This document shows positions 6,419 through 58,846 of a DNA stretch of 64,000 nucleotides, piece after piece (within the stretch, counting starts at the first letter, position 1; every line of letters begins with the position of its first letter). Source of the DNA: Podarcis filfolensis (Eukaryota). Made by a program: the position numbers and the translations under genes. Location: the NCBI GenBank assembly GCA_964270895.1, contig OZ185446.1, one strand, 5' to 3'. The notes beneath the pieces were generated by a model that searched no databases, had not been told where the DNA came from, and was given only the letters and a program-made list of their open reading frames with translations.

Positions 6419-6696
6419 TTCCATGGGTGCCCAAATCCCAAAAGGGTTGGAGCCTGTCTGATACTCACCAGAACAGATTTCTTTATAAACTGGGGCTGCT
6501 AAAGACCTCAGCGGCATGCTGCATTCTAAGAAGGGACTTCCCGAATGACTGCAGTGTCCAAACTGGTATATAGGGGTTAACACGATCCCTCTCACACACT
6601 CTAAGTGGTGGTGAAGCTCCCTCACATTCATTTCTTCTGGAGAAGGGAGAGTTAGACCGGACAGGCCTGGGATAAATACTGCTGGAGAGCAGATAC

Positions 6697-7218
6697 TGTC
6701 ATGGACTGGCTGGTTGCAGAGAAGTGGTGGGAGGCAACAGCTGGAGCACCCCCAAGGGAAAAAGCCTCAGAGCCCAGGGATTGGTGGTGGGACAACAATG
6801 AGTGGTCAGAGGGAGAACAGGGAGCGGACTGGGAGCCGGAGGTGTCAGAAGATGAAGAGGCAACAGGGTTTAGTGAGCAGGAAGATTCTGCAGCAGAGAG
6901 CAGTCCTGAATCAGGGGCAGAAGCAGAGGCTGGGGAGGAGGGGGAAGAAGAGGCAGAGATGAAGCAGGCTGTTGAAGAAGCCAAGGGGTCTCCACCATCT
7001 GCTAAGATCAGCTCCCCTACCCCTTGGTCTCCCAGAACCAGAAGAGGTATGAAGAGGGTGGAACAATGGCAAACAAGGTGTTGGAGTCTCAGATTGCTTG
7101 GGATAGACCTGGGGGAGAGGGACTAGGCCTGGCCTCCTGAGCAGTTTAGTTTCTTTGAATAAAGAGTTAACTTCAGTGTGAATTATTTCTGACCTGCTTC
7201 TGAGGCACGGCTCTGTCA
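6697..7218 (+). mobile_element. Solo LTR carrying an acidic ORF (copy 1)
   Basis: TGTCA..TGTCA ends (TG..CA), flanks gatac/gataa (5-bp TSD with 1 mismatch), AATAAA 7158-63; homologous to 38678-39796. Confidence 0.8.
6701..7126 (+). CDS. LTR-borne acidic Trp-rich ORF, 141 aa, function unknown
   Basis: ATG at nt 5 of the LTR, open for 141 codons; 43/72 identical residues without gaps to ORF 38682-39074. Expression is not shown. Confidence 0.45.
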   Translation: MDWLVAEKWWEATAGAPPREKASEPRDWWWDNNEWSEGEQGADWEPEVSEDEEATGFSEQEDSAAESSPESGAEAEAGEEGEEEAEMKQAVEEAKGSPPSAKISSPTPWSPRTRRGMKRVEQWQTRCWSLRLLGIDLGERD

Positions 7219-7575
7219 GATAATGGTCAGCTGGGCAGTTTTGTACACTCATGATCTCTGTAGCACCTTCCCTCCCCCTCCCCCACTCTCCAATCTGTGC
7301 ACGGCGGCTGACACCCATCTTTCTAAGCCAGGTAGCCAGAAGAGCACCAGCATTTTAGCTCTGACCCTGGTGCTGACCGGGATGATCTTCAGGCCTGGTG
7401 CAGATCTGCCAGTTTCACAATTCAGTCTCTGATCTCTCTGTTTAACAGCTAACGCCCACCAGCCATCAGGTTGAGGATCATTATCATGCTCTTGCTTGTT
7501 TTGCAATTTGGGGAGTGGAAAATAAACAATGGGGGGGAAAGATCCAGCTCGTGGTGTTGCTCTTAGCACCACTGG

Positions 7576-13730: not shown

Positions 13731-14343
13731 TGTTGTTGTTGTTTAGTCGTTTAGTCGTGTCCGACTCTTCGTGACCCCATGGACCAGAGCACGCCAGGCA
13801 CTCCTGTCTTCCACTGCCTCCCGTAGTTTGGTCAAACTCATGCTGGTAGCTTCGAGAACACTATCCAACCATCTCGTCCTCTGTCGTCCCCTTCTCCTTG
13901 TGCCCTCCATCTTTCCCAACACCAGGGTCTTTCCCAGGGAGTTTTCTCTTCTCATGAGGTGGCCAAAGTATTGGAGCCTCAGCTTCAGGATCTGTCCTTC
14001 CAGTGAGCACTCAGGGCTGATTTCCTTCAGAATGGATAGGTTTGATCTTCTTGCAGTCCATGGGACTCTCAAGAGTCTCCTCCAGCACCAGAATTCAAAA
14101 GCATCCATTCTTCGGCGATCAGCCTTCTTTATGGTCCAGCTTTCATTTTCATACATCACTGCTGGGAAAACCATAGCTTTTACTATACGGACCTTTGTTG
14201 GCAAGGTGATGTCTCTGCTTTTTAAGATGCTCTCTAGGTTTGTCATTGCTTTTCTCCCAAGAAGCAGGCGTCTTTTAATTTTGTGGCTGCTGTCACCATC
14301 TGCAGTGATCATGGAGCCCAAGAAAGTAAAATCTCTCACTGCC
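13731..14343 (-). mobile_element. BovB (RTE) LINE 3' fragment
   Basis: ORF 13743-14444(-) LLLGRKAMTNLESILKSRDITLPTKVRIVKAMVFP...WCWRRLLRVPWTARRSN...GVTKSRTRLND; (CAA)n tail. Confidence 0.95.
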
Positions 14344-15815
14344 CTTTTAGCAACCCATTTATTATTGAGGAATTCCACCAAGGATATATCTCTGGTGTGC
14401 TCTCTGCATCTGTTGCCTCTGCAGCATCCTAAATGAAGGGTCACAGGTGCCTTTTGGCGCTAACCTTGGCTGCAGGTCTCAAGGCTGATGGAGAGGAACT
14501 GAAAAGCAGGCTCGTGTCATTGCATTTCCTAGAGAGTAGCTGCTGAGCTCCCAAAGGAAATCCCAGTTCCGTTTTTCAGAAGCAAGGTTCAGCTTCGCAC
14601 ATACACCTGTGAAAAGCTGCTACATAACTGTTTTTGTAATTTATTAAGTTCCTTCATTGGAAGCTTATGGTTTGTTTGTTTTTAATGCCAAGGAAATGAG
14701 GAGCAGAATACTATGCCGTTAACTCCTTGCCTTGCCGCCCCACTCGGCTGTTTAACTCGCCTTGACTCCTTGTCAACTGGTGTTCTCTGTCGCTCCTCCA
14801 TGAAACTGATTGGCAGTAGATCTAGATCCAGAGCAGATGACAGAATCAACTTTATCAAGCCAAGCTTCCAGTAGAATTCACTGCCACTAGAATAGGGCGG
14901 TGGCTGCTGGCTTTTAAAAGTGGATTAAACAAAGCCATACAGGGTGCGCCTTATCAATGGCTATAAGTGATCTCCATGTTGAGAGTTGGGCCACATATAC
15001 ACCATACATTTAACACACATGTAAAGAGCATGGCTTTCTCCCAAAGTATCCTGGGAACTGTAGTTTGTTGTGGGTGCTGGGAATTATAGCTCTTTAAGGA
15101 GTGAACTAAGTTTCTGATTTTGGCGGCAGGTGGGAGGGTGGAGAACCATGTCTTTTAAATGTTTGGTGTAGATTATTTTACTGAATACCAGTTCCGGGGA
15201 GCAAGAACACTCCTTCACTCCTTGCTTGGGGGCCTGTGAAGGCAATGGCTTAGCCACTGTGGGAAGCAGAATGCTGGAGCAGATGGACCTTTTGTCTGAC
15301 CCAGTAACAGTCTTCTTACAATTCCTATGATGAATTGGATTCACTGTGACCATTTTCAGGCCATGTTTGGCTTCCTACAGGATCCTTACTAAAGAATAGC
15401 ATTTCACAGGGCACATCGACTCTACAGTCCTATATTGGATTTGTCTTGATTTCTGCACCCGCTTACCTGCTAAGAAACTTTTGCCAGATGTCTGCTATGG
15501 AACCCTGCGAATATTGCAAAGGATTCTGTGGGCGGGTGAATATCCTAGGAATGTGTTCTTTTGGACCTTTGCCATCATCCCATGAGGACTAAGCTGGACA
15601 AGATGTTGAGGGTCCCTATTTGGCTTGCCCACCTCTTTAAATTTCTTTACCACCACCCTGCCCCCCCCCCAAAGTTGCACTGAGGCTGTGTTTTCCTGAA
15701 GTAAATTGCCCCTCCAAAGCGAATGGAATGCAGATAATAGGGAAGATAGCAGCTTGAGGAGCACTGGTTATGTCTGGGACATGATCTTTAGGATCCTCCC
15801 AAGGTTTGTCTTTAT

Positions 15816-29287: not shown

Positions 29288-29968
29288 TGAGGTGAGAGAT
29301 AGTTACGAGACAAAAGGCCAGCGTTTCAGGAAGCTGAAGTGGGGGTGGTGCCAGAGCACAAGCTGGGCTGTCTGTTTTATGCTGCAGAGAGGGCCAGACA
29401 CAATGTTTGGGGTCTCTTGCAATCAGAGTCTGCAGCAATGGAAGGAACAAGGGTCCCTCTTGGGATGTGAATGCTCTGAACTCTCTCCATCTAGACGCTG
29501 GTTGTATATATGTGTAAATAAACCATACATCATAAAGACACCATGGACTCCACTGTGCCTCATTCTTCCAAAAGGTAACATGTTGTTGTTTAGTCATTTA
29601 GTCGTGTCCGACTCTTCGTGACCCCATGGACCAAAGCATACCAGGCACTCCTGTCTTCCACTAACTCCCGCAGTTTGGTCAAACTCATGTTGGTAGCTTT
29701 GAGAACACTGCCCAACCATCTCGTCCTCTGTCGTCCCCTTCTCCTTGTGCCCTCCATCTTTCCCAACATCAGGGTCTTTTCCAGGGAGTCTTCTCTTCTC
29801 ATGAGGTGGCCGAAGTATTGGAGCCTCAGCTTCAGGATCTGTCCTTCCAGTGAGCACTCAGGGGTGATTTCCTTAAGAATGGATAGGTTTGATCTTCTTG
29901 CAGTCCATGGGACTCTCAAGAGTCTCCTCCAGCACCATAATTCAAAAGGTAACATAGACCCTGCTAAG
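29288..29968 (+). mobile_element. LTR (same family as 56227-56740) interrupted by BovB
   Basis: Shares tcttggg.tgt.aatgct and tgtatatatg..tgtaaataaaccata.at.ataaagacac with the 56 kb copy. Confidence 0.7.
29581..29943 (-). mobile_element. BovB 3' fragment with 11-bp TSD
   Basis: aaaaggtaaca at 29570-80 and 29944-54. Confidence 0.95.
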
Positions 29969-30330
29969 TGTTGGATAATCTCTCTCTGTCTGTGAGAAGC
30001 ATTTGTACCAGAAACAGAGAAGAACAGAGAAGGAAGTTTCAAGACAGCAGAAGGCTGAGATTGTTTTGTCTATGCAAGGACATTTTCTGTGGGAACTGTT
30101 ATTTGGACATGTGCAGTGTGACAGGAAGTACTGATAACAAGGTTCTGTATACCTTGTTGTGAGTCTGTTGCTTGTGCCTTGCGGTGAGAGAAGCAGAGAG
30201 TGAGTCTTGGACTCTTATTGGACTCTTAAGCATGCCTTGACCATGGCAGTGGTGAATGTCTGTATATATTTGCTGCCAACATGCTTTTATGCCTGTCAAG
30301 TAAACCTCTACACTTGACTGAATCTTTATG
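29969..30330 (+). mobile_element. Second LTR-like element
   Basis: TGTTGG start, GA-rich U3-like region, AGTAAA signal at ~30299; right end uncertain. Confidence 0.5.
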
Positions 30331-37120: not shown

Positions 37121-38681
37121 AGAGGAGGCTCACCTGTGGCACTTCAGATGCCATAACTCCCATCAGCCCCAGTCAGCATGGCTCCTGGTCTGGGCTGAAG
37201 TAGTCCAAGCACATTTAGAGGGCCACAGGTTCCCCATCCCTGGAATAGACACAACAGAGCTACTATAAGGCATCTTCCTGTGCAACACATGAGACAGGGT
37301 GATGATGGGTCTGCTTGGTTCACTTCCAGGTAAATATGTTTAGGATGAGGTAGTCAGAAGCATGCCTGAAGCCAGTAGTGTGCACCTACTACTTGGAAGT
37401 GAGCTCCACTGATGCTCATCGCTTCATTAAGTGAATGGTAATAATAAGTGGTAGCCTGAGTCTCTCTGCACAGCTCGATGCCAGCAGGAACCAGTTCCAT
37501 ATATTGTCAAAACCACTGTGCATTAAGTGTTAGATGGCTGTTGCATGGCTTCTGGTTCTCTTCTTCCACCCTTTGGCACACCCCAGCAAGGAGATAGGAA
37601 GAAGCTTGTATCTTCCCAGGAAGTTGTCCAGGCCTTTCTCACATTCTGTGTACATCTGCTATAAATGCCCAGGATTTACATGGCTCCCAAGAGCCTATTG
37701 GGTTCCTTCGCACTGAAGTTTCAACGTTACTGAATGAACAAGGGTTGGGTGTATTCTGCACAGCTGGGAATGTGTCACAGAAACAGAAAATCAACTGAAT
37801 GGCATAGAATGTGGCATATAAATCATGGTAGATTTTTGAGCGTGGTTGGTTTAAAAAGCAAGTTTTTAGATCTCATTCATTGCCATTAAAACCACTGCAT
37901 GGTCTTCCCATTCCAGGCAATCTCTAGTGAGGGCAAAAATCCAAATTATTTAGAAACCTGAAGAGCAAAACCAAATAAATTATGGAAGTTTTGAGTGGAC
38001 GTACCACCTAATTTGCACAATTGACCCTAGGTTTTTCAACCAGACAGTACTTCTTTGAGGCTGGTAGTTTGTGCAAACGCTAGAGCAGACCCTTTAGAAA
38101 GTCATGGGTTCAGGTTTCATAGATTGCCATCCATATCTAGCTGAAATCAATGCCAAGACACCTACTGATTTTAACGTATCTGGATTGCAGTTGGATTGTG
38201 CAAGTGGATTGAGCGTAGTGTCCACATGAGACTCATGGGGCAATGTAGGCAGTCTCTCGACCAAAGAGATGCAGGCTTTAATGATGTGTTTGTGACCCAC
38301 CCCCCAGGCCTTGGACCATAGGTAATATATGAACCAAGATTTCTAGATGGCAGCTACTTCTTAAATCAAGAACTCGAACTGCTGTTTGTTTTCAGAAATG
38401 AAATCCACACACACACACACACACACGGCAGCTGGGAGCAGAGGGGTCAGGCTGACTCCAGGGTAATGAGATATGGAGATTTGCACCTCCAGCTCAAACG
38501 TATCCCAGGTCAGCAGTGGTGACCACACAGGGCTGTCTTTGGACATGTCTGCAGTGCCAGAGTTTCTGGAGTGGGAAGCGAGCCTCTTTAAGGCAGCCAA
38601 ATAAGCCTCCAAAAGTTACTAGCTTGCCTTTCTTTTCTTAACCATGAAAATTGTGGTACTGCATTAGGGCATGATAATGTA

Positions 38682-39074
38682 ATGGACTGGCGAGACGCAG
38701 AGGAACGCTGGGAGGCACCAGGGAGAGAAATCCCAAGGGAAGAAGGCTCAGAGCCCAGGGAGTGGTGGTGGGACGATGATGAGCGGTCAGAAGGAGAAGA
38801 GAGAGAAGACTGGGAGGAGGAGGTGTCAGGAGTTGAAGGGGAAACAGGGCTTAGTGAGCAGGGAGAATCTGTGGCAGAGAGAAGTCCAGAAGCAGGTGAA
38901 GAGGGAGGTGAAGAGGCAGAGATGAATCAGGCTGGTGAAGAAGCTAGGGTGTCTCCCATGCCTGCTGTGACAAGCTCTCCTCCCCATTGGTATGAAGAGG
39001 GAGGAGCAAATACAGGCATGGAGCTGGCAAGTCTCAGATTGCTTGGGAAGGACCCTGGGGAGGAGACGACTTAG
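38682..39074 (+). CDS. LTR-borne acidic Trp-rich ORF, 130 aa (homolog of 6701-7126)
   Basis: ATG at nt 5 of the LTR; open frame; compensating indels near the 3' end relative to copy 1. Confidence 0.4.
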   Translation: MDWRDAEERWEAPGREIPREEGSEPREWWWDDDERSEGEEREDWEEEVSGVEGETGLSEQGESVAERSPEAGEEGGEEAEMNQAGEEARVSPMPAVTSSPPHWYEEGGANTGMELASLRLLGKDPGEETT

Positions 39075-39237
39075 GCAGTTGTGGGAAGGCAGGGACCTTC
39101 AATCTCCACAACTGCCTCATAGGAGTAAGTGTCGGACTTGCATTTGACCAAACTACTCCTCCGGTCGAGCCTTCTGAATCTCCTCCGATGATGATTAACG
39201 ACCTGAGCCTTTGATAAGGCTCCAAGCACGTTTCCCA

Positions 39238-39744
39238 TTATGCAGAGTATTCAGCACGCAGGGAAGGACGAGAAGGTTATGAGCTACTTCGCCAAAGAGT
39301 TTTATTCATAACTACACAGACAGAAAAGTAACATCCTCTCTCTGTGAAAGCAGAGAGCAACTGGAAAAACAAAGGAACAGGAAACCAGTAAACATCACAT
39401 CCGTCTCTTGTTTTCCGTGAGACTTCCAACAGTATGGAATCTCTGGAATGTAAACAGAGTCTTGTGACTCCAAGCAACTGCACAGTGGTACAAACAGAAA
39501 CTAACAGTAAGACATACCAAGAAGAGTTGCTGTGCTCATTAGACCTGGTGCTCCTGATCAGGCCTTGTTCCTTCTACTACAGGCAGCGACCATTTTGCAT
39601 GGGGGTTCCGTTTGTCAACCCCCCAATGCATCAGCGGAGTGTGCATAAGCCTGCCCCACCCTGTTACACCCCCATTCCTCCCTCTTCAGGGTCCAAAAGG
39701 GCCCACGTGTTGGTGGACACGCCTAAAATGGTCACTGCCCGTAA
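39238..39744 (-). mobile_element. Unclassified element nested in LTR copy 2
   Basis: About 0.5 kb absent from copy 1; minus-strand AATAAA near 39300; termini ttatgcag..cccgtaa. Boundaries approximate. Confidence 0.5.
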
Positions 39745-42239
39745 TGAGTTAACTTCACTTACTCTATGAGATTTATTGCTCACTGGCTCCCTGACAGATA
39801 ACTACCAACAGAATTGTACAAACATGATGCTTGAAGCCACACTAGAATATATGAGTATATTTCTGAGGGAAGCGGGGGCCAAAATAGAGACCAAAGCAGA
39901 GATGATTTTATTGAGTAAGTTGTTGGGAAGAATTTGGCGACAGTCTGAAAGGCACCATTGGGGAGAATAAGCCCACAGCGTGAGCAGAGTAGACAGAGAT
40001 AAGTTGTTTTCCCCATCTCATAGTGCTAGAGCCTTTGTTGATCTTGATTGGCACCAGACTCAGGGGAGACAAAAGGAAGGAAGCAGTACATAAGCATTTT
40101 GTGGAATCTGCTGCCACAAAATGAGATTATGGCCACAGGCTTAGATCAGATTGGACAAATTCACGTGCGGGGGAATCCATGAGGCATAGTAACCCATGGC
40201 TACTAGTCATAATAGCTAAGTGGATCTTCCATGTTCAGTGGCAAGAAACAGTGAAAGGTGCTACTGCTTGTGTACTTACCTGAGGCATCTCAATATCCCA
40301 CCCTGGTAAGAGAGAACCTTCGGTTGGGTCAGGAGTGTGCGAATCTGGGGCAAAAGGAGAAGACTTGCACCGCTCATTCAAGAGGAGGATTCCTGAAAAC
40401 AAAGGAAACCAGTGGTAGAAACCAGTGGTTTCAGGACCCTGGACAGAGCCGTGAAAGCAGGCTACTTGTTCCAAGGCACACTGAGTCCTCTCTGAGCCTT
40501 GCTGCACCTCTCATGCTCCATCTAATAAAGGGGCAACTCTCTGGTTGCAAGCCCACAGACCATCATCTCACCAGGAGCTCATGCTGTGCCTGCTGTCTCT
40601 GTTGCCCTGCTAGCTCAGCTGAGTACATTGGGGAAATATACCAGCTCCTTGGTGGAATGGGATTGGGGGCCGTCATTCCTGGGGCGTGCAGACAGCCGAT
40701 GGCCTCAGGCTTGGATGCCTCAGGTTCAGTGGTGGGGCTTAGTTCCAAAGCTTTCTCTGTTTGACCCTCAGCCTCTGTCTCTGGGTGGCTGTTGGGCTTT
40801 GGAACCAGGGCATTGTGGGGAGCAAGATGCTCAACTATATCAGCCTTTGATCTCCTTCAGCAGGGGCCTCTTACATTCTTACATTAGAAGAGAGTGCTTT
40901 TGGGTAGGGAGGCAAAGAAGTGGTGGTGGTGAGACCAGCTGGGGGTCTAAGCCTCTGAATTAGGAAAGGAAGAGTTTTCTTGTGAAGAATGCTGCTTCAC
41001 AAATCCTGTGGGAAGTGCAGGCGTGAGTTGGATCGGACGCTGCTGACAGGCCAGCCCGTCTTGTCTCTGGCCAGCCGCTTCCCGCTGTGTGCAAGAGGAG
41101 TGTTGAGAGGAACCAACAGCTGCCGGCCTCCTCAGAGCAAGACTCGGAAAGCCGCCTTGTGGTGCGTTTCATCCGAGTGTTCTCAGCCTCAAGGGCAAAC
41201 ACGTACGCTGGCAAGTGGAACTAGAGCCAGAGACAATTGCCCGCTCAGCCTCCCTGCAAGCAGCCAATAGCAGAGGAGTAGTAGAATTTCTTTTAAAGGG
41301 GCTTTCAAGGGAAACTAGCCTGGTTGCGGCAGGAGTGGCGCAACAAATAGTTTTAACTCCACTGCAAAAAAAGAAAGGAAGTCCAAATGCAAGGAAGTGT
41401 GAATGGCTGAGATACCAAGATCCCTTTTGTAAGAAGTGCAATGCCTGTCTGTACGATTACCAGGTTGTAGGGGTGGGGAAAAGCAAGAGATGACAGAGAG
41501 GGTCGTTGTGCAGAGAGGGCATCCATTTCAATGGGAGGTAGGTGAGTGGGCAGCGGTGAGATCAGCTTCTGAGAGCAAATTGCTCAAACGTGCAAGCTGC
41601 AGATGTGATCTTTTGCTATAACCGGCGCAAATTTATTTCACCAAGTACAGTAAGGAATCATAAGCGAGGCACAAGCAGTTTATTTTCTGTCAAACAGGAG
41701 CTAAGCAGTCATCACTCATTCCTCCAGGAGGGCTTTGGCAGGTGTCCAAGGAACCACACTGCGACATACATTAATAAAGAGATTAATTTCCCACGTTAGC
41801 AGGATAAGAATGATGATGAGCAGGACTGAAAGTCTGGAGCTCTCTTTCCCCACCTCACACCCCTGCTGTCTCCCCATGGGACGAGGCTGCACTCGGATGC
41901 ATTTTGAATTTTAAATGGTGTAGGTTACTTTTGGGGGGGGGGATTAATTGTTCTCCTGGCAAGGATGCAATGCCTATATGCTGAAAAAATCCAGTCTCAT
42001 AAAGGAGAAGGAATGACAAACCAAGGCTTTATTATCACAATGGCTTGCCCTCTGAGAGGCACTAGCATTTTCATGTTCAACCCCTGCAGCCCAGAGCATA
42101 AAAGCAAGTTGTATTCCCAGGTTGGGAGTCAGCTTTCTAGACATACCGTATTGCTTTGTCCAGAGGTTTTGCACAAGCCTGCCAAAGCTGAATAATTTTA
42201 ATAGCCTGATTCTATGCAGGTTCTATGCCTGATTCTATG

Positions 42240-42733
42240 TGTCCAGTTCTGGGCACCACAGTTCAAGAAGGACACTGACAAACTGGAACGTGTCCAGAGG
42301 AGGGCAACTAAAATGGTCAAAGGCCTGGAAACGATGCCTTATGAGGAACGGCTAAGGGAGCTGGGCATGTTTAGCCTGGAGAAGAGCAGGTTAAGGGGTG
42401 ATATGATAGCCATGTTCAAATATATAAAAGGATGTCACATAGAGGAGGGAGAAAGGTTGTTTTCTGCTGCTCCAGAGAAGCGGACACGGAGCAATGGATC
42501 CAAACTACAAGAAAGAAGATTCCACCTAAACATTAGGAAGAACTTCCTGACAGTAAGAGCTGTTCGACAGTGGAATTTGCTGCCAAGGAGTGTGGTGGAG
42601 TCTCCTTCTTTGGAGGTCTTTAAGCAGAGGCTTGACAACCATATGTCAGGAGTGATGGTGTTTCCTGCTTGGCAGGGGGTTGGACTTGATGGCCCTTGTG
42701 GTCTCTTCCAACTCTATGATTCTGTGATTCTAT
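42240..42733 (+). mobile_element. CR1 LINE 3' fragment, young
   Basis: Open frame [44 protein letters not shown]; gattctat tail. Confidence 0.95.
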
Positions 42734-42811
42734 GGTTTATTTGAAATAAGGTCCCACCGAGTTTAATTGGTCTTACTCCCAAGCACATTACTTCATTGTT
42801 ATTTTGTTAAC

Positions 42812-46878: not shown

Positions 46879-47008
46879 CCAACAACAGCTTTGGAATGGC
46901 ATAGCAATTGAGATTCCTCCCATCTGTTGGGGCTGGTGTAGATATGATAGGGCCAGTCATATTCATGCGTCGTTCAATATATGCATTTATTGGGGGAGTA
47001 GTGGAAGA

Positions 47009-47382
47009 TGCTTTTGAATTATGGTGCTGGAGGAGACTCTTGAGAGTCCCATGGACTGCAAGAAGATCAAACCTATCCATTCTTAAGGAAATCAGCCCTG
47101 AGTGCTCACTGGAAGGACAGATCCTGAAGCTGAGGCTCCAAGACTTTGGCCACCTCATGAGAAGAGAAGACTCCCTGGAAAAGACCCTGATGTTGGGAAA
47201 GATGGAGGGCACAAGGAGAAGGGGATGACAGAGGACGAGATGGTTGGACAGTGTTCTCAAAGCTACCAGCATGAGTTTAACCAAACTGCGGGAGGCAGTG
47301 GAAGACAGGAGGGCCTGGCGTGCTCTGGTCCATGGGGTCACGAATAGTCAGACACGACTAAACAACTAAACAACAACAACAA
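47009..47382 (+). mobile_element. BovB 3' fragment
   Basis: AFELWCWRRLLRVPWTARRS frame; TSD agtggaaga 47000-08 / 47383-91. Confidence 0.95.
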
Positions 47383-51687: not shown

Positions 51688-52123
51688 GTTGTTGTTGTTT
51701 AGTTGTTTAGTCGTGTCTGACTCTTCGTGACCCCATGGACCAGAGCACGCCAGGCACTCCTGTCTTCCACTGCCTCCCGCAGTTTAGTCAAACTCATGCT
51801 GGTAGCTTCGAGAACGCTATCCAACCATCTCGTCCTCTGTCCCCTTCTCCTTGTGCCCTCCATCTTTCCCAACATCAGGGTCTTTTCCAGGGAGTCTGCT
51901 CTTCTCGTTAGGTGGCCAAAGTCTTGGAGCCTCAGCTTCAGGATCTGTCCTTCCAGTGAGCACTCAGGGCTGATTTCCTTCAGAATGGATAGGTTTGATC
52001 TTCTTGCAGTCCATGGGACTCTCAAGAGTCTCCTCCAGCACCATAATTCAAACGCATCAATTCTTCAGCGATCAGCCTTCTTTATGGTCCAGCTCTCACT
52101 TCCATACATCACTACTGGGAAAA
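51688..52123 (-). mobile_element. BovB 3' fragment
   Basis: Near-identical to 13731; TSD atctctt 51681-87 / 52126-32. Confidence 0.95.
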
Positions 52124-56740: not shown

Positions 56741-58846
56741 TAGGAATGGCAGGTGCTTTCTATCACCATGATCTCTTCCTAAAAATCTCATGCTGCTTCC
56801 ATATTTTTCTCCTTTACATCTAAATTTCTACCCTGCAATCTTGTTCTAACCTTAATTACTTGGTTTCTGTTTACTCCAACTCGCAACGGTTGTTTTGCAC
56901 TAAATAGTCTCCAGTCCTACATTCTGCTTTTGCATACCGCTCATCTCTTGGTGTCTCCTGTGAGTCCGCTTTTCTGAAACTACTTTTAATATGTCATTAT
57001 TCAAATCTGACGATTGCGACATAACCCTTTGCTTTTGATTAATGTCGGCACTGTGTATTTAGTTATATAATGCTTGCATACCAAAATAGTTTCAATGCAG
57101 TTTACAAGTATAAAATCAAGTATTCAATATCCACACATAGTTGAAATACAGAATAAAGCAATTCCATCGAAACATAAAAACATCTGTATTTAATATATAC
57201 GATAAAACAAGCCTGTGAAGAAACATAACAATTAAAACAGTTAAAAGAACAATTAAAACAATTAGATCAGAAAGCTCAGGTTCAGGGAAATGCTTGACTT
57301 AGAAGATGTGTCTTCGAGAGCCAGTGAGTCCTAGGATATTTTAGCAATATTGATGTATTTACTAATACTTATATTTGGTGCAAGGGACTCTGCAGATTGA
57401 AATAGTATTATCTCTTAACCTCTAGTATCACCAACATTTCTCCTCCCCTCCTTTTTTAACTGCCCTGCTTCTGTGCTTCTGATGGCAACCTAATGCGCAG
57501 AAACCTTTTTCCACCGTGGAGATAAATGGTGGGTAAAAACATTCACCTGCTAAATTTCTCTGCATGTCACTCCTGTTAAAGGTACAGGTGCAGGAATAAT
57601 TTTCCTGTGAACAATATCCCATTTGACCCCCCAAACTTTCTTTACAGCAGCAGGAAAGTTTGCTGGGAGCTTGTTTGAGAAAACCATCATGGTATGGAAA
57701 GAGGATCCTTGGTTGTATTCTTTTAGCATCCATATTTACATCTGAGACCGTCCACCAGAACAAAATTAATTTTGTTTTTTTTTTTTTAAAAAAAGGTGGC
57801 TTAGACACAGGAAACTGAGATGACTGTGAGATGGATAGCTTGCCCCTGACTGTGTACTGTACTTATCACATCTTTCATTGGCTCAATAACTCTTCCTATT
57901 TTCTGGAGCGTGGCTGCATAAGATAGCCGGCAAGTCTGACAGTGGCGGAGAAACCATGATTTATAAGCCTTGCATCACATATCCTTTGCAGCCTTTCTGT
58001 GTTAGGACTTCAGCTCTTCTGACAGGGAATAACACATCTGCTGTCTACATGCTCAGGTTGCAACCTGAAGATTTCCTCCTCTGCCTTTAAATCCACCCGT
58101 AAAGCAAAATGCTTAGCAGCTGTGGCTTGTATTGTTTACCTGACATTAGCTCCCTATATCTGTTGATGGGAGAAGAGGAAGATTTCAGAAATGGGGGGGA
58201 CACTGGAAACAGAAGCTACCTCAGCATCAGATGATGTAAAGGTAAAAAGTGAACCCCTGGTCACAGCCCAGAAAGGCAAATTTAATTTATTTGACCCAAA
58301 GCCTCCCAGCTGAGATTTCACACACCTTAACTAGCTGGACGTACTTTATGCTTTCTAATTTTTATACTTTATTTCCCATTGCTATAAGTACAGGCAATGA
58401 CCATTTTACACACATTCAATTTGTGTGTGGTCGTGCACACGCGCATTGCCGCGAACCCAGAAGTGACCGGGAAAAGGGCAACAGTGGCCCTTAAAAAGTG
58501 TGGAAAGGGCAAAAACGGTGTGAAAACAGCACCTAGCAATCCCACGAGCTTTTGCAAGTACAACCCCAAAAGCCCTTGCACCAACCATTGAGGCCTGTGG
58601 AGAGTTGGAGATTGAGAAAGGAGGTATGGAGGGAACAACTGTGGTGGAGTTTGGCATCTGGTAAGTGCTGCTGGTTTTCTAAAGGGTTTTTCTGGGGTTT
58701 ACAGAGGGTGTTCACGGGCTTTTTCTATGGGCTTCCCCAATATACGTGATTTCACTTAAACCCACAGTGCCTTGGAATGTAAGCCCCGTGTAAAATGGTC
58801 GTTGCCTGTAGTTCCACAGAAACTGAAATGCTTCTGTCTCTTTGTA

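Follow-up and report, generated by a model that had tools for sequence, protein, structure and literature searches.

A multi-copy wall-lizard solo LTR with a probable but unproven protein-coding frame

A reading frame that fills most of a solitary long terminal repeat (LTR) raises the question of whether the LTR encodes a protein or is open for some other reason. Such a locus lies in a 64,000-nt stretch of Podarcis filfolensis DNA (contig OZ185446.1, assembly GCA_964270895.1; hereafter the window), where an initial annotation had proposed a solo-LTR family that may carry an acidic, Trp-rich protein gene in its U3 region. The LTR occurs twice in the 64-kb window, as copies A and B, with the following features.

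6692..6696, left target-site duplication of copy A, GATAC
6697..7218, + strand, solo LTR copy A, 522 bp, TGT...TCA, a short form in which ~470 bp of copy B are missing
6701..7126, + strand, 141-codon open reading frame (ORF) of copy A, with its ATG at LTR nt 5 (6701) and its stop at 7124-7126, covering 426 of 522 bp
7158..7163, + strand, AATAAA, likely poly(A) signal of copy A, 55 nt from the LTR end, with a G/T-rich stretch behind it
7219..7223, right target-site duplication of copy A, GATAA, matching the left side at 4 of 5 positions
38673..38677, left target-site duplication of copy B, GATAA
38678..39796, + strand, solo LTR copy B, 1119 bp (~955 bp minus its MITE), TGT...ACA
38682..39074, + strand, 130-codon ORF of copy B, ATG at nt 5, no internal stop, sharing 63 of 100 colinear residues with A
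39073..39117, + strand, predicted stem-loop of copy B right behind the stop codon (z -3.8, for a region picked after it had been seen)
39075..39539, + strand, non-coding LTR segment of copy B only, absent from A, without triplet periodicity (chi2 5.0)
39580..39741, TA-flanked MITE with inverted ends, 162 bp, inside copy B at the position equivalent to the AATAAA of A
39797..39801, right target-site duplication of copy B, GATAA

Both copies have the ends of an LTR. The termini TGT...ACA in B and TGT...TCA in A differ by one change and form short inverted repeats of the TG...CA type; the end of A reads TGTCA and not TGACA. Target-site duplications of 5 bp, within the 4-6 bp range of LTR elements, are exact around B (GATAA/GATAA) and imperfect around A (GATAC/GATAA). 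The ORF portions of the two copies share ~81% of aligned bases (316/388), and A-B divergence is ~24%. A's stop region can be aligned both to B's stop and to B from 39540 onward, so that A is most simply a short form without the middle segment; in sequencing run X18, one loose end on a single contig, judged by eye, resembles this segment, which suggests that the long form is not private to B. The segment at 39075..39539 may hold the promoter. The two copies had been described as having the same layout, and this holds for the ATG at nt 5 and the open frame but not for the remainder of B, where ~470 extra bp follow the stop and the MITE sits at the AATAAA site.

The search for further LTR copies compared contigs of 4 of 23 sequencing runs at 80% likeness. 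The stretch was matched by 5982 of 8.2 million contigs in run X1 and by 7117 of 25.2 million in run X17, and summed depth, which is 35-63 in the flank, exceeds 20,000 at 6688-6721. In two runs, 146 and 155 contigs carried unrelated sequence before 6697 (agreement 0.33 and 0.32), and this, with the jump in depth, fixes the left LTR edge and indicates many independent insertions. Contig cover is thin at the right edge, which rests on the target duplication and on copy B. A fair reading puts the copy number in the hundreds, depth itself not being a copy count. The family is thus dispersed, multi-copy and sharply bounded. Run X17, which carries another species label, has one contig each bridging 6450-6732 and 7150-7434, with 23 differences from the window in 281 bases, mostly in the flank (~8% diverged); as these contigs span both LTR-flank junctions, the insertion of copy A is older than the split from the related species. 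Protein relatives bear the names Podarcis lilfordi and P. raffonei, others coming from ENA and Logan contigs. A multi-copy wall-lizard retroelement has thus left a solo LTR at 6697-7218, and the proposal of a lacertid solo-LTR family is borne out by the 5-bp duplication, the many insertion sites and the sharing of the LTR with a related species. Contigs from two runs guessed to be RNA also cover the ORF (372 and 164), and were not counted as expression since they carry no strand, level or locus.

The frame itself was as described for copy A, with the LTR start TGTCA, the ATG at nt 5, 426 of 522 bp in the ORF and AATAAA after it, and the second copy at 38678-39796 was confirmed as open. The first 72 residues align without gaps, 43 being identical, with EPR.WWWD preserved and no stop in either copy. 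Beyond codon 72, B differs from A by 18 nt of gaps, followed by a 20-nt gap and a 2-nt offset (A-B gaps: sum 18, net 18 nt), and about a dozen codons near the end of B's ORF are in another frame than A before the register is regained at SLRLLG. The ORFs of A, B and two relatives, P0001 and P0003, terminate no more than a residue or two apart, after (S/F)LRLLG-like motifs. At the other end, the ATG has G at both -3 and +4. This ATG lies within TGTYANR, given as the integrase attachment motif at the LTR start (PMC3601003, excerpted text), so that its position is weaker evidence than it appears; since, in addition, relatives P0006 and P0008 lack a Met there, the ATG alone is indecisive.

The alternative that survives best is that no protein was ever made, a purine-rich regulatory U3 having grown by slippage in threes and taken its ATG from the TGTCATG end motif. 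We consider such a non-coding by-product possible but unlikely. Against it, composition-matched shuffles were open in only 1-2% of cases. When dinucleotides were shuffled 20,000 times, one of the three forward frames remained open in 1.6% of trials for A and 1.2% for B, and 60-nt block shuffles were open in 1.9% and 1.8%, respectively, the open frames of A and B counting as one observation because of their common ancestry. The caveat that GA-rich strands are poor in stop codons is by itself insufficient to explain the open frame. Base composition by codon position gave chi2 values of 26.6 (A) and 30.6 (B), against a maximum of 21.7 in the 435 remaining segments of 423 nt (both ORF regions excluded, LINE coding remnants included) and 5.0 in the non-ORF part of B; the highest value among 44 purine-rich control windows was 22.7, and the strongest of these were LINE coding remnants. 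This periodicity is present in codons 1-47 (p 0.016) and in codons 48-95, persists without Glu codons (p 0.009), and was not detected in codons 96-141 (p 0.37). No tandem unit was seen: TRF detected a single 23-bp doublet in B and nothing tandem in the ORF of A, and all lags divisible by 3 were raised about equally, for which reasons a minisatellite origin was rejected.

Stop-prone codons add to this picture. Among T-purine-purine triplets, 11 of 11 are TGG in A's frame versus 7 of 17 in the two other frames, the frame having been chosen as open, and all 11 Trp codons of A, each one transition from a stop, have escaped a hit. Neutral evolution would leave both copies open across the 100 colinear codons in ~2.6% of cases at 12% divergence per branch and in ~13% at 6%. 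Among the six frames, dN/dS is lowest in that of the ORF (0.64 vs 0.82-1.54), and, of the listed in-ORF sites at which most copies differ from A, 5 of 8 are third positions. Periodicity, shuffles and the common end point support a coding history of the frame.

Where the by-product gains ground is in the divergence between copies. The initial annotation had named dN/dS as a test beforehand, and maximum likelihood gave 0.64-0.75 for the single pair A-B, not significantly below 1 (likelihood-ratio p 0.15-0.37; bootstrap 0.38-1.18), with 16/21/25 differences at the three codon positions. Amino-acid identity and BLOSUM score equal the neutral expectation (z 0.2-0.5), as does the conservativeness of mismatches pooled over 10 non-reference rows of alignment A3 (z -0.04; B and 9 of 14 relatives, P0006 and P0011 being omitted as poorly aligned and P0012-14 found later). 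The conservative D/E/N changes named in the initial annotation are thus no more frequent than neutrality predicts. None of the 14 database relatives spans the whole ORF, and other copies decay at chance level: among 12 joints listed of 26, 3 of the 9 in-ORF joints keep the frame, and the in-ORF gaps, among those listed, are -3, -1, -1 and +1. Counting those of A and B, the window holds 14 ATG-to-stop frames of at least 130 codons, and several run antisense to LINE remnants. The frame under study was picked for being open, and the antisense of A is open too, over 156 codons. Set against this, most of the pairwise distance represents change after insertion, so that decay of solo copies is expected even if a master lineage was under selection; the selection test is diluted by it, and a gene is not refuted. 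Trp retention in the relatives (34/44 vs 25 expected) was left uncounted because these were found with a Trp-weighted profile. The proposed U3-encoded protein is thus partly supported, its coding history resting on periodicity, shuffles and the common end, with purifying selection (dN/dS 0.64-0.75), translation and a stand-alone gene as putative parts of the proposal. Overall, the solo-LTR family is real, and the coding frame is probably real as well, if unproven.

The antisense frame (6652-7122, - strand) lies in codon register with the ORF, is Ser-rich, and has one stop in B. We rejected it as a true gene, as its dN/dS is higher (0.82) and the placement of AATAAA favours the + strand.

Strong periodicity combined with near-neutral divergence between copies would also be accounted for by a piece of a host or foreign gene captured in U3 long ago, its codon pattern kept but useless to the element. 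We regard a dead passenger of this kind as improbable: the start of the frame coincides with the LTR edge, the frame has outlasted ~24% divergence, and a source gene was not found, the 11 matches returned by a HMMER search of 1.84 billion representatives all being to this LTR frame, and Pfam giving no match for A and one unrelated sub-threshold match for B. That copy A was instead kept open as a lizard exon or gene is highly improbable, even though A is open despite predating the species split and gene models with a SCAN domain, in two Podarcis species, have other copies annotated as their last exons. The frame of A would survive neutrally often enough (probability 0.37 at 4% and 0.15 at 8% divergence, substitutions only), and no RNA evidence is tied to the A locus.

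The annotated exons deserve mention in their own right. Some 85-90 codons of the LTR frame form the in-frame C-terminus of the P. raffonei RefSeq models P0012 and P0014, paralogues with a SCAN domain, and a matching P. lilfordi model, P0002, likewise ends in ~85-90 codons of it. Exonisation of the LTR frame in these three models, which are gene predictions, is possible.

We lean towards the reading that an active element translated the LTR frame from its 3' LTR, either as a gene of its own or as a tail of pol, and that the solo copies are relics. The U3 of a 5' LTR is not on the element RNA, while that of the 3' LTR is. The AATAAA 55 nt from the LTR end and the G/T-rich stretch behind it would place the ORF in U3, with promoter and poly(A) signal both downstream of it; of the two copies of the frame in a full-length element, the 3' one alone would then be carried on the element RNA. 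It could then be translated from its own ATG on a spliced RNA or as a continuation of an upstream ORF. The first version, a separate gene on a spliced message as for MMTV sag, is put forward tentatively. The second, in which the frame prolongs the ORF before it, probably that of pol/integrase, is put forward slightly more tentatively still. The pol of fish Sushi-type elements can continue for a short distance into their 3' LTR in this phase. A weak search with noisy alignment found the ORF as the tail of 0 of 7999 scored long proteins (341-2000 aa). An upstream stretch seemingly common to P0011 and P0012 was also considered as internal sequence of the element, and was not supported by BLASTP. 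Reverse transcription would copy U3 to both ends of the element, and LTR-LTR recombination would leave solo copies to decay neutrally, copy A being a short form still open and copy B partly decayed.

The closest parallel is MMTV sag, for which spliced RNAs allow translation out of the 3' LTR (PMC3026287, excerpted text). As in sag, the whole ORF lies within the LTR with its start, stop and a downstream poly(A) signal (the U3 limits being placed by AATAAA), would be readable from the 3' LTR only, and lengthens the LTR (PMC3026287, excerpted text). Unlike sag, the lizard product shares no detected sequence similarity with it, is predicted to be soluble and disordered, and has only putative expression, and the 5-bp duplication and end motifs point to a Gypsy or class III element rather than to a betaretrovirus such as MMTV. 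Lentiviral nef and foamy-virus bel2 likewise have coding sequence in U3 that is read from the 3' LTR, but both begin before the LTR does, as the lizard frame may do too. In plants, the additional ORFs of LTR retrotransposons are similarly orphans without database relatives and with a proposed regulatory role, some of their products being nuclear; these ORFs are described as internal to the element, most of them following pol and preceding the 3' LTR, and neither "in the LTR" nor "within the LTR" occurs in that study (PMC7264820). In the literature consulted, mainly titles and abstracts, we found neither this LTR family described nor, for any reptile retroelement or vertebrate Gypsy element, an ORF internal to the LTR, though lizard repeat libraries in supplements could hold the LTR.

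For the element class, the end motifs and the position of AATAAA fit a Sushi-type Gypsy element, and a class III endogenous retrovirus (ERV) is also compatible, so that we assign the element to neither. The Sushi 5' motif TGTYANR is matched fully by A and with one mismatch by B, the 3' motif CNTNACA fully by B and with two mismatches by A, so that each is matched in full by one of the two copies, and an AATAAA near the LTR 3' end is common to both systems (PMC3601003, excerpted text). Sushi U3 regions are T-rich (PMC3601003, excerpted text), in contrast to the G/A-rich lizard U3 with 15% T (62 T in the 423 nt of A's ORF), a difference that the coding insert may have caused. The terms "ORF" and "open reading frame" never occur in this Sushi LTR survey (PMC3601003), and V-clade Ty3/Gypsy elements are reported from sauropsids (PMC2774666, excerpted text). 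The class III ERV XtERV-S, from a cold-blooded vertebrate, resembles the lizard family in its many solo LTRs and in its TGT...ACA ends and 5-bp duplication, the last two of which do not discriminate between the classes, and differs in that its additional ORF lies in pol, none being described in its LTR in the excerpted text (PMC8278194). Identity with DIRS or Ngaro elements was rejected, as the terminal TG..CA and the 5-bp duplication argue against it.

The product would be a disordered acidic protein, predicted to act as a nuclear regulator of the element. It comprises a Trp-rich acidic N-terminus, a Glu-rich middle, a Ser/Pro stretch and a basic C-terminal predicted helix at residues 118-132, with a net charge of -26 and 8 Trp in residues 1-95 and of +5 in residues 96-141; PRTRRG is common to A, P0001, P0003 and P0005. 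AlphaFold predicted disorder (mean pLDDT 55.5) apart from this single helix (pLDDT ~71). Similarity to the MMTV Sag or lentiviral Nef families was not found in Pfam or PDB, and three lectin constructs retrieved from PDB through short W-x-W-D stretches (~7 bits each) were rejected as chance. The ESM Atlas gave no usable match for A or B; a word-indexed search with A alone as query confirmed 0 of 130 candidates, protein-pattern scans confirmed 0 of 152 and 0 of 7, and DNA pattern scans of metagenome and viral contigs gave 0 matches. Trp residues in acidic disorder are typical of activation domains and of short docking motifs, and a basic patch points to nuclear import or chromatin binding. By analogy, the product most resembles an activation-domain or a chromatin-tethering, anti-silencing module, function being the least certain part of this reading.

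LTR-borne genes have so far been established for a few complex retroviruses. If the lizard frame was translated as proposed, it would add a new orphan protein and would make it possible to test whether a vertebrate transposon encodes its own regulator in U3. Host genes, as suggested by the SCAN models of Podarcis, could then acquire coding exons, not promoters alone, from solo LTRs. For a mere pol tail or by-product, the result is a modest annotation point. In its boldest form, which we hold to be speculative and on balance doubtful, a vertebrate Ty3/Gypsy element would have carried an accessory gene wholly in U3 for an acidic, Trp-rich nuclear transactivator or anti-silencing protein, and its solo LTRs, each starting with an ATG in strong context, would have scattered hundreds of acidic-domain exons through lizard genomes, some joined to SCAN-domain genes.

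Several further features of the window were recorded. The hairpin at 39073-39117 of copy B is missing in the short copy A, and its Rfam match to a mycobacterial sRNA was below threshold and rejected; a tRNA search found none. The fragments at 13743-14459, 29590-30069, 46905-47228 and 51699-52064, up to 96-98% alike, are presumably young 3' fragments of an RTE/BovB-like LINE, and 42205-42744 presumably a CR1-like fragment; these LINE fragments contain open frames, and we take the family labels from their translations. The TA-flanked MITEs at 39580-39741 and about 58389-58812 have related inverted ends and unequal lengths; the TA duplication marks both as Tc1/mariner-like, and another repeat starts just beside the second. 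Finally, copies A and B, as independent insertions, both lie in GATA(A/C), which suggests a target-site preference.
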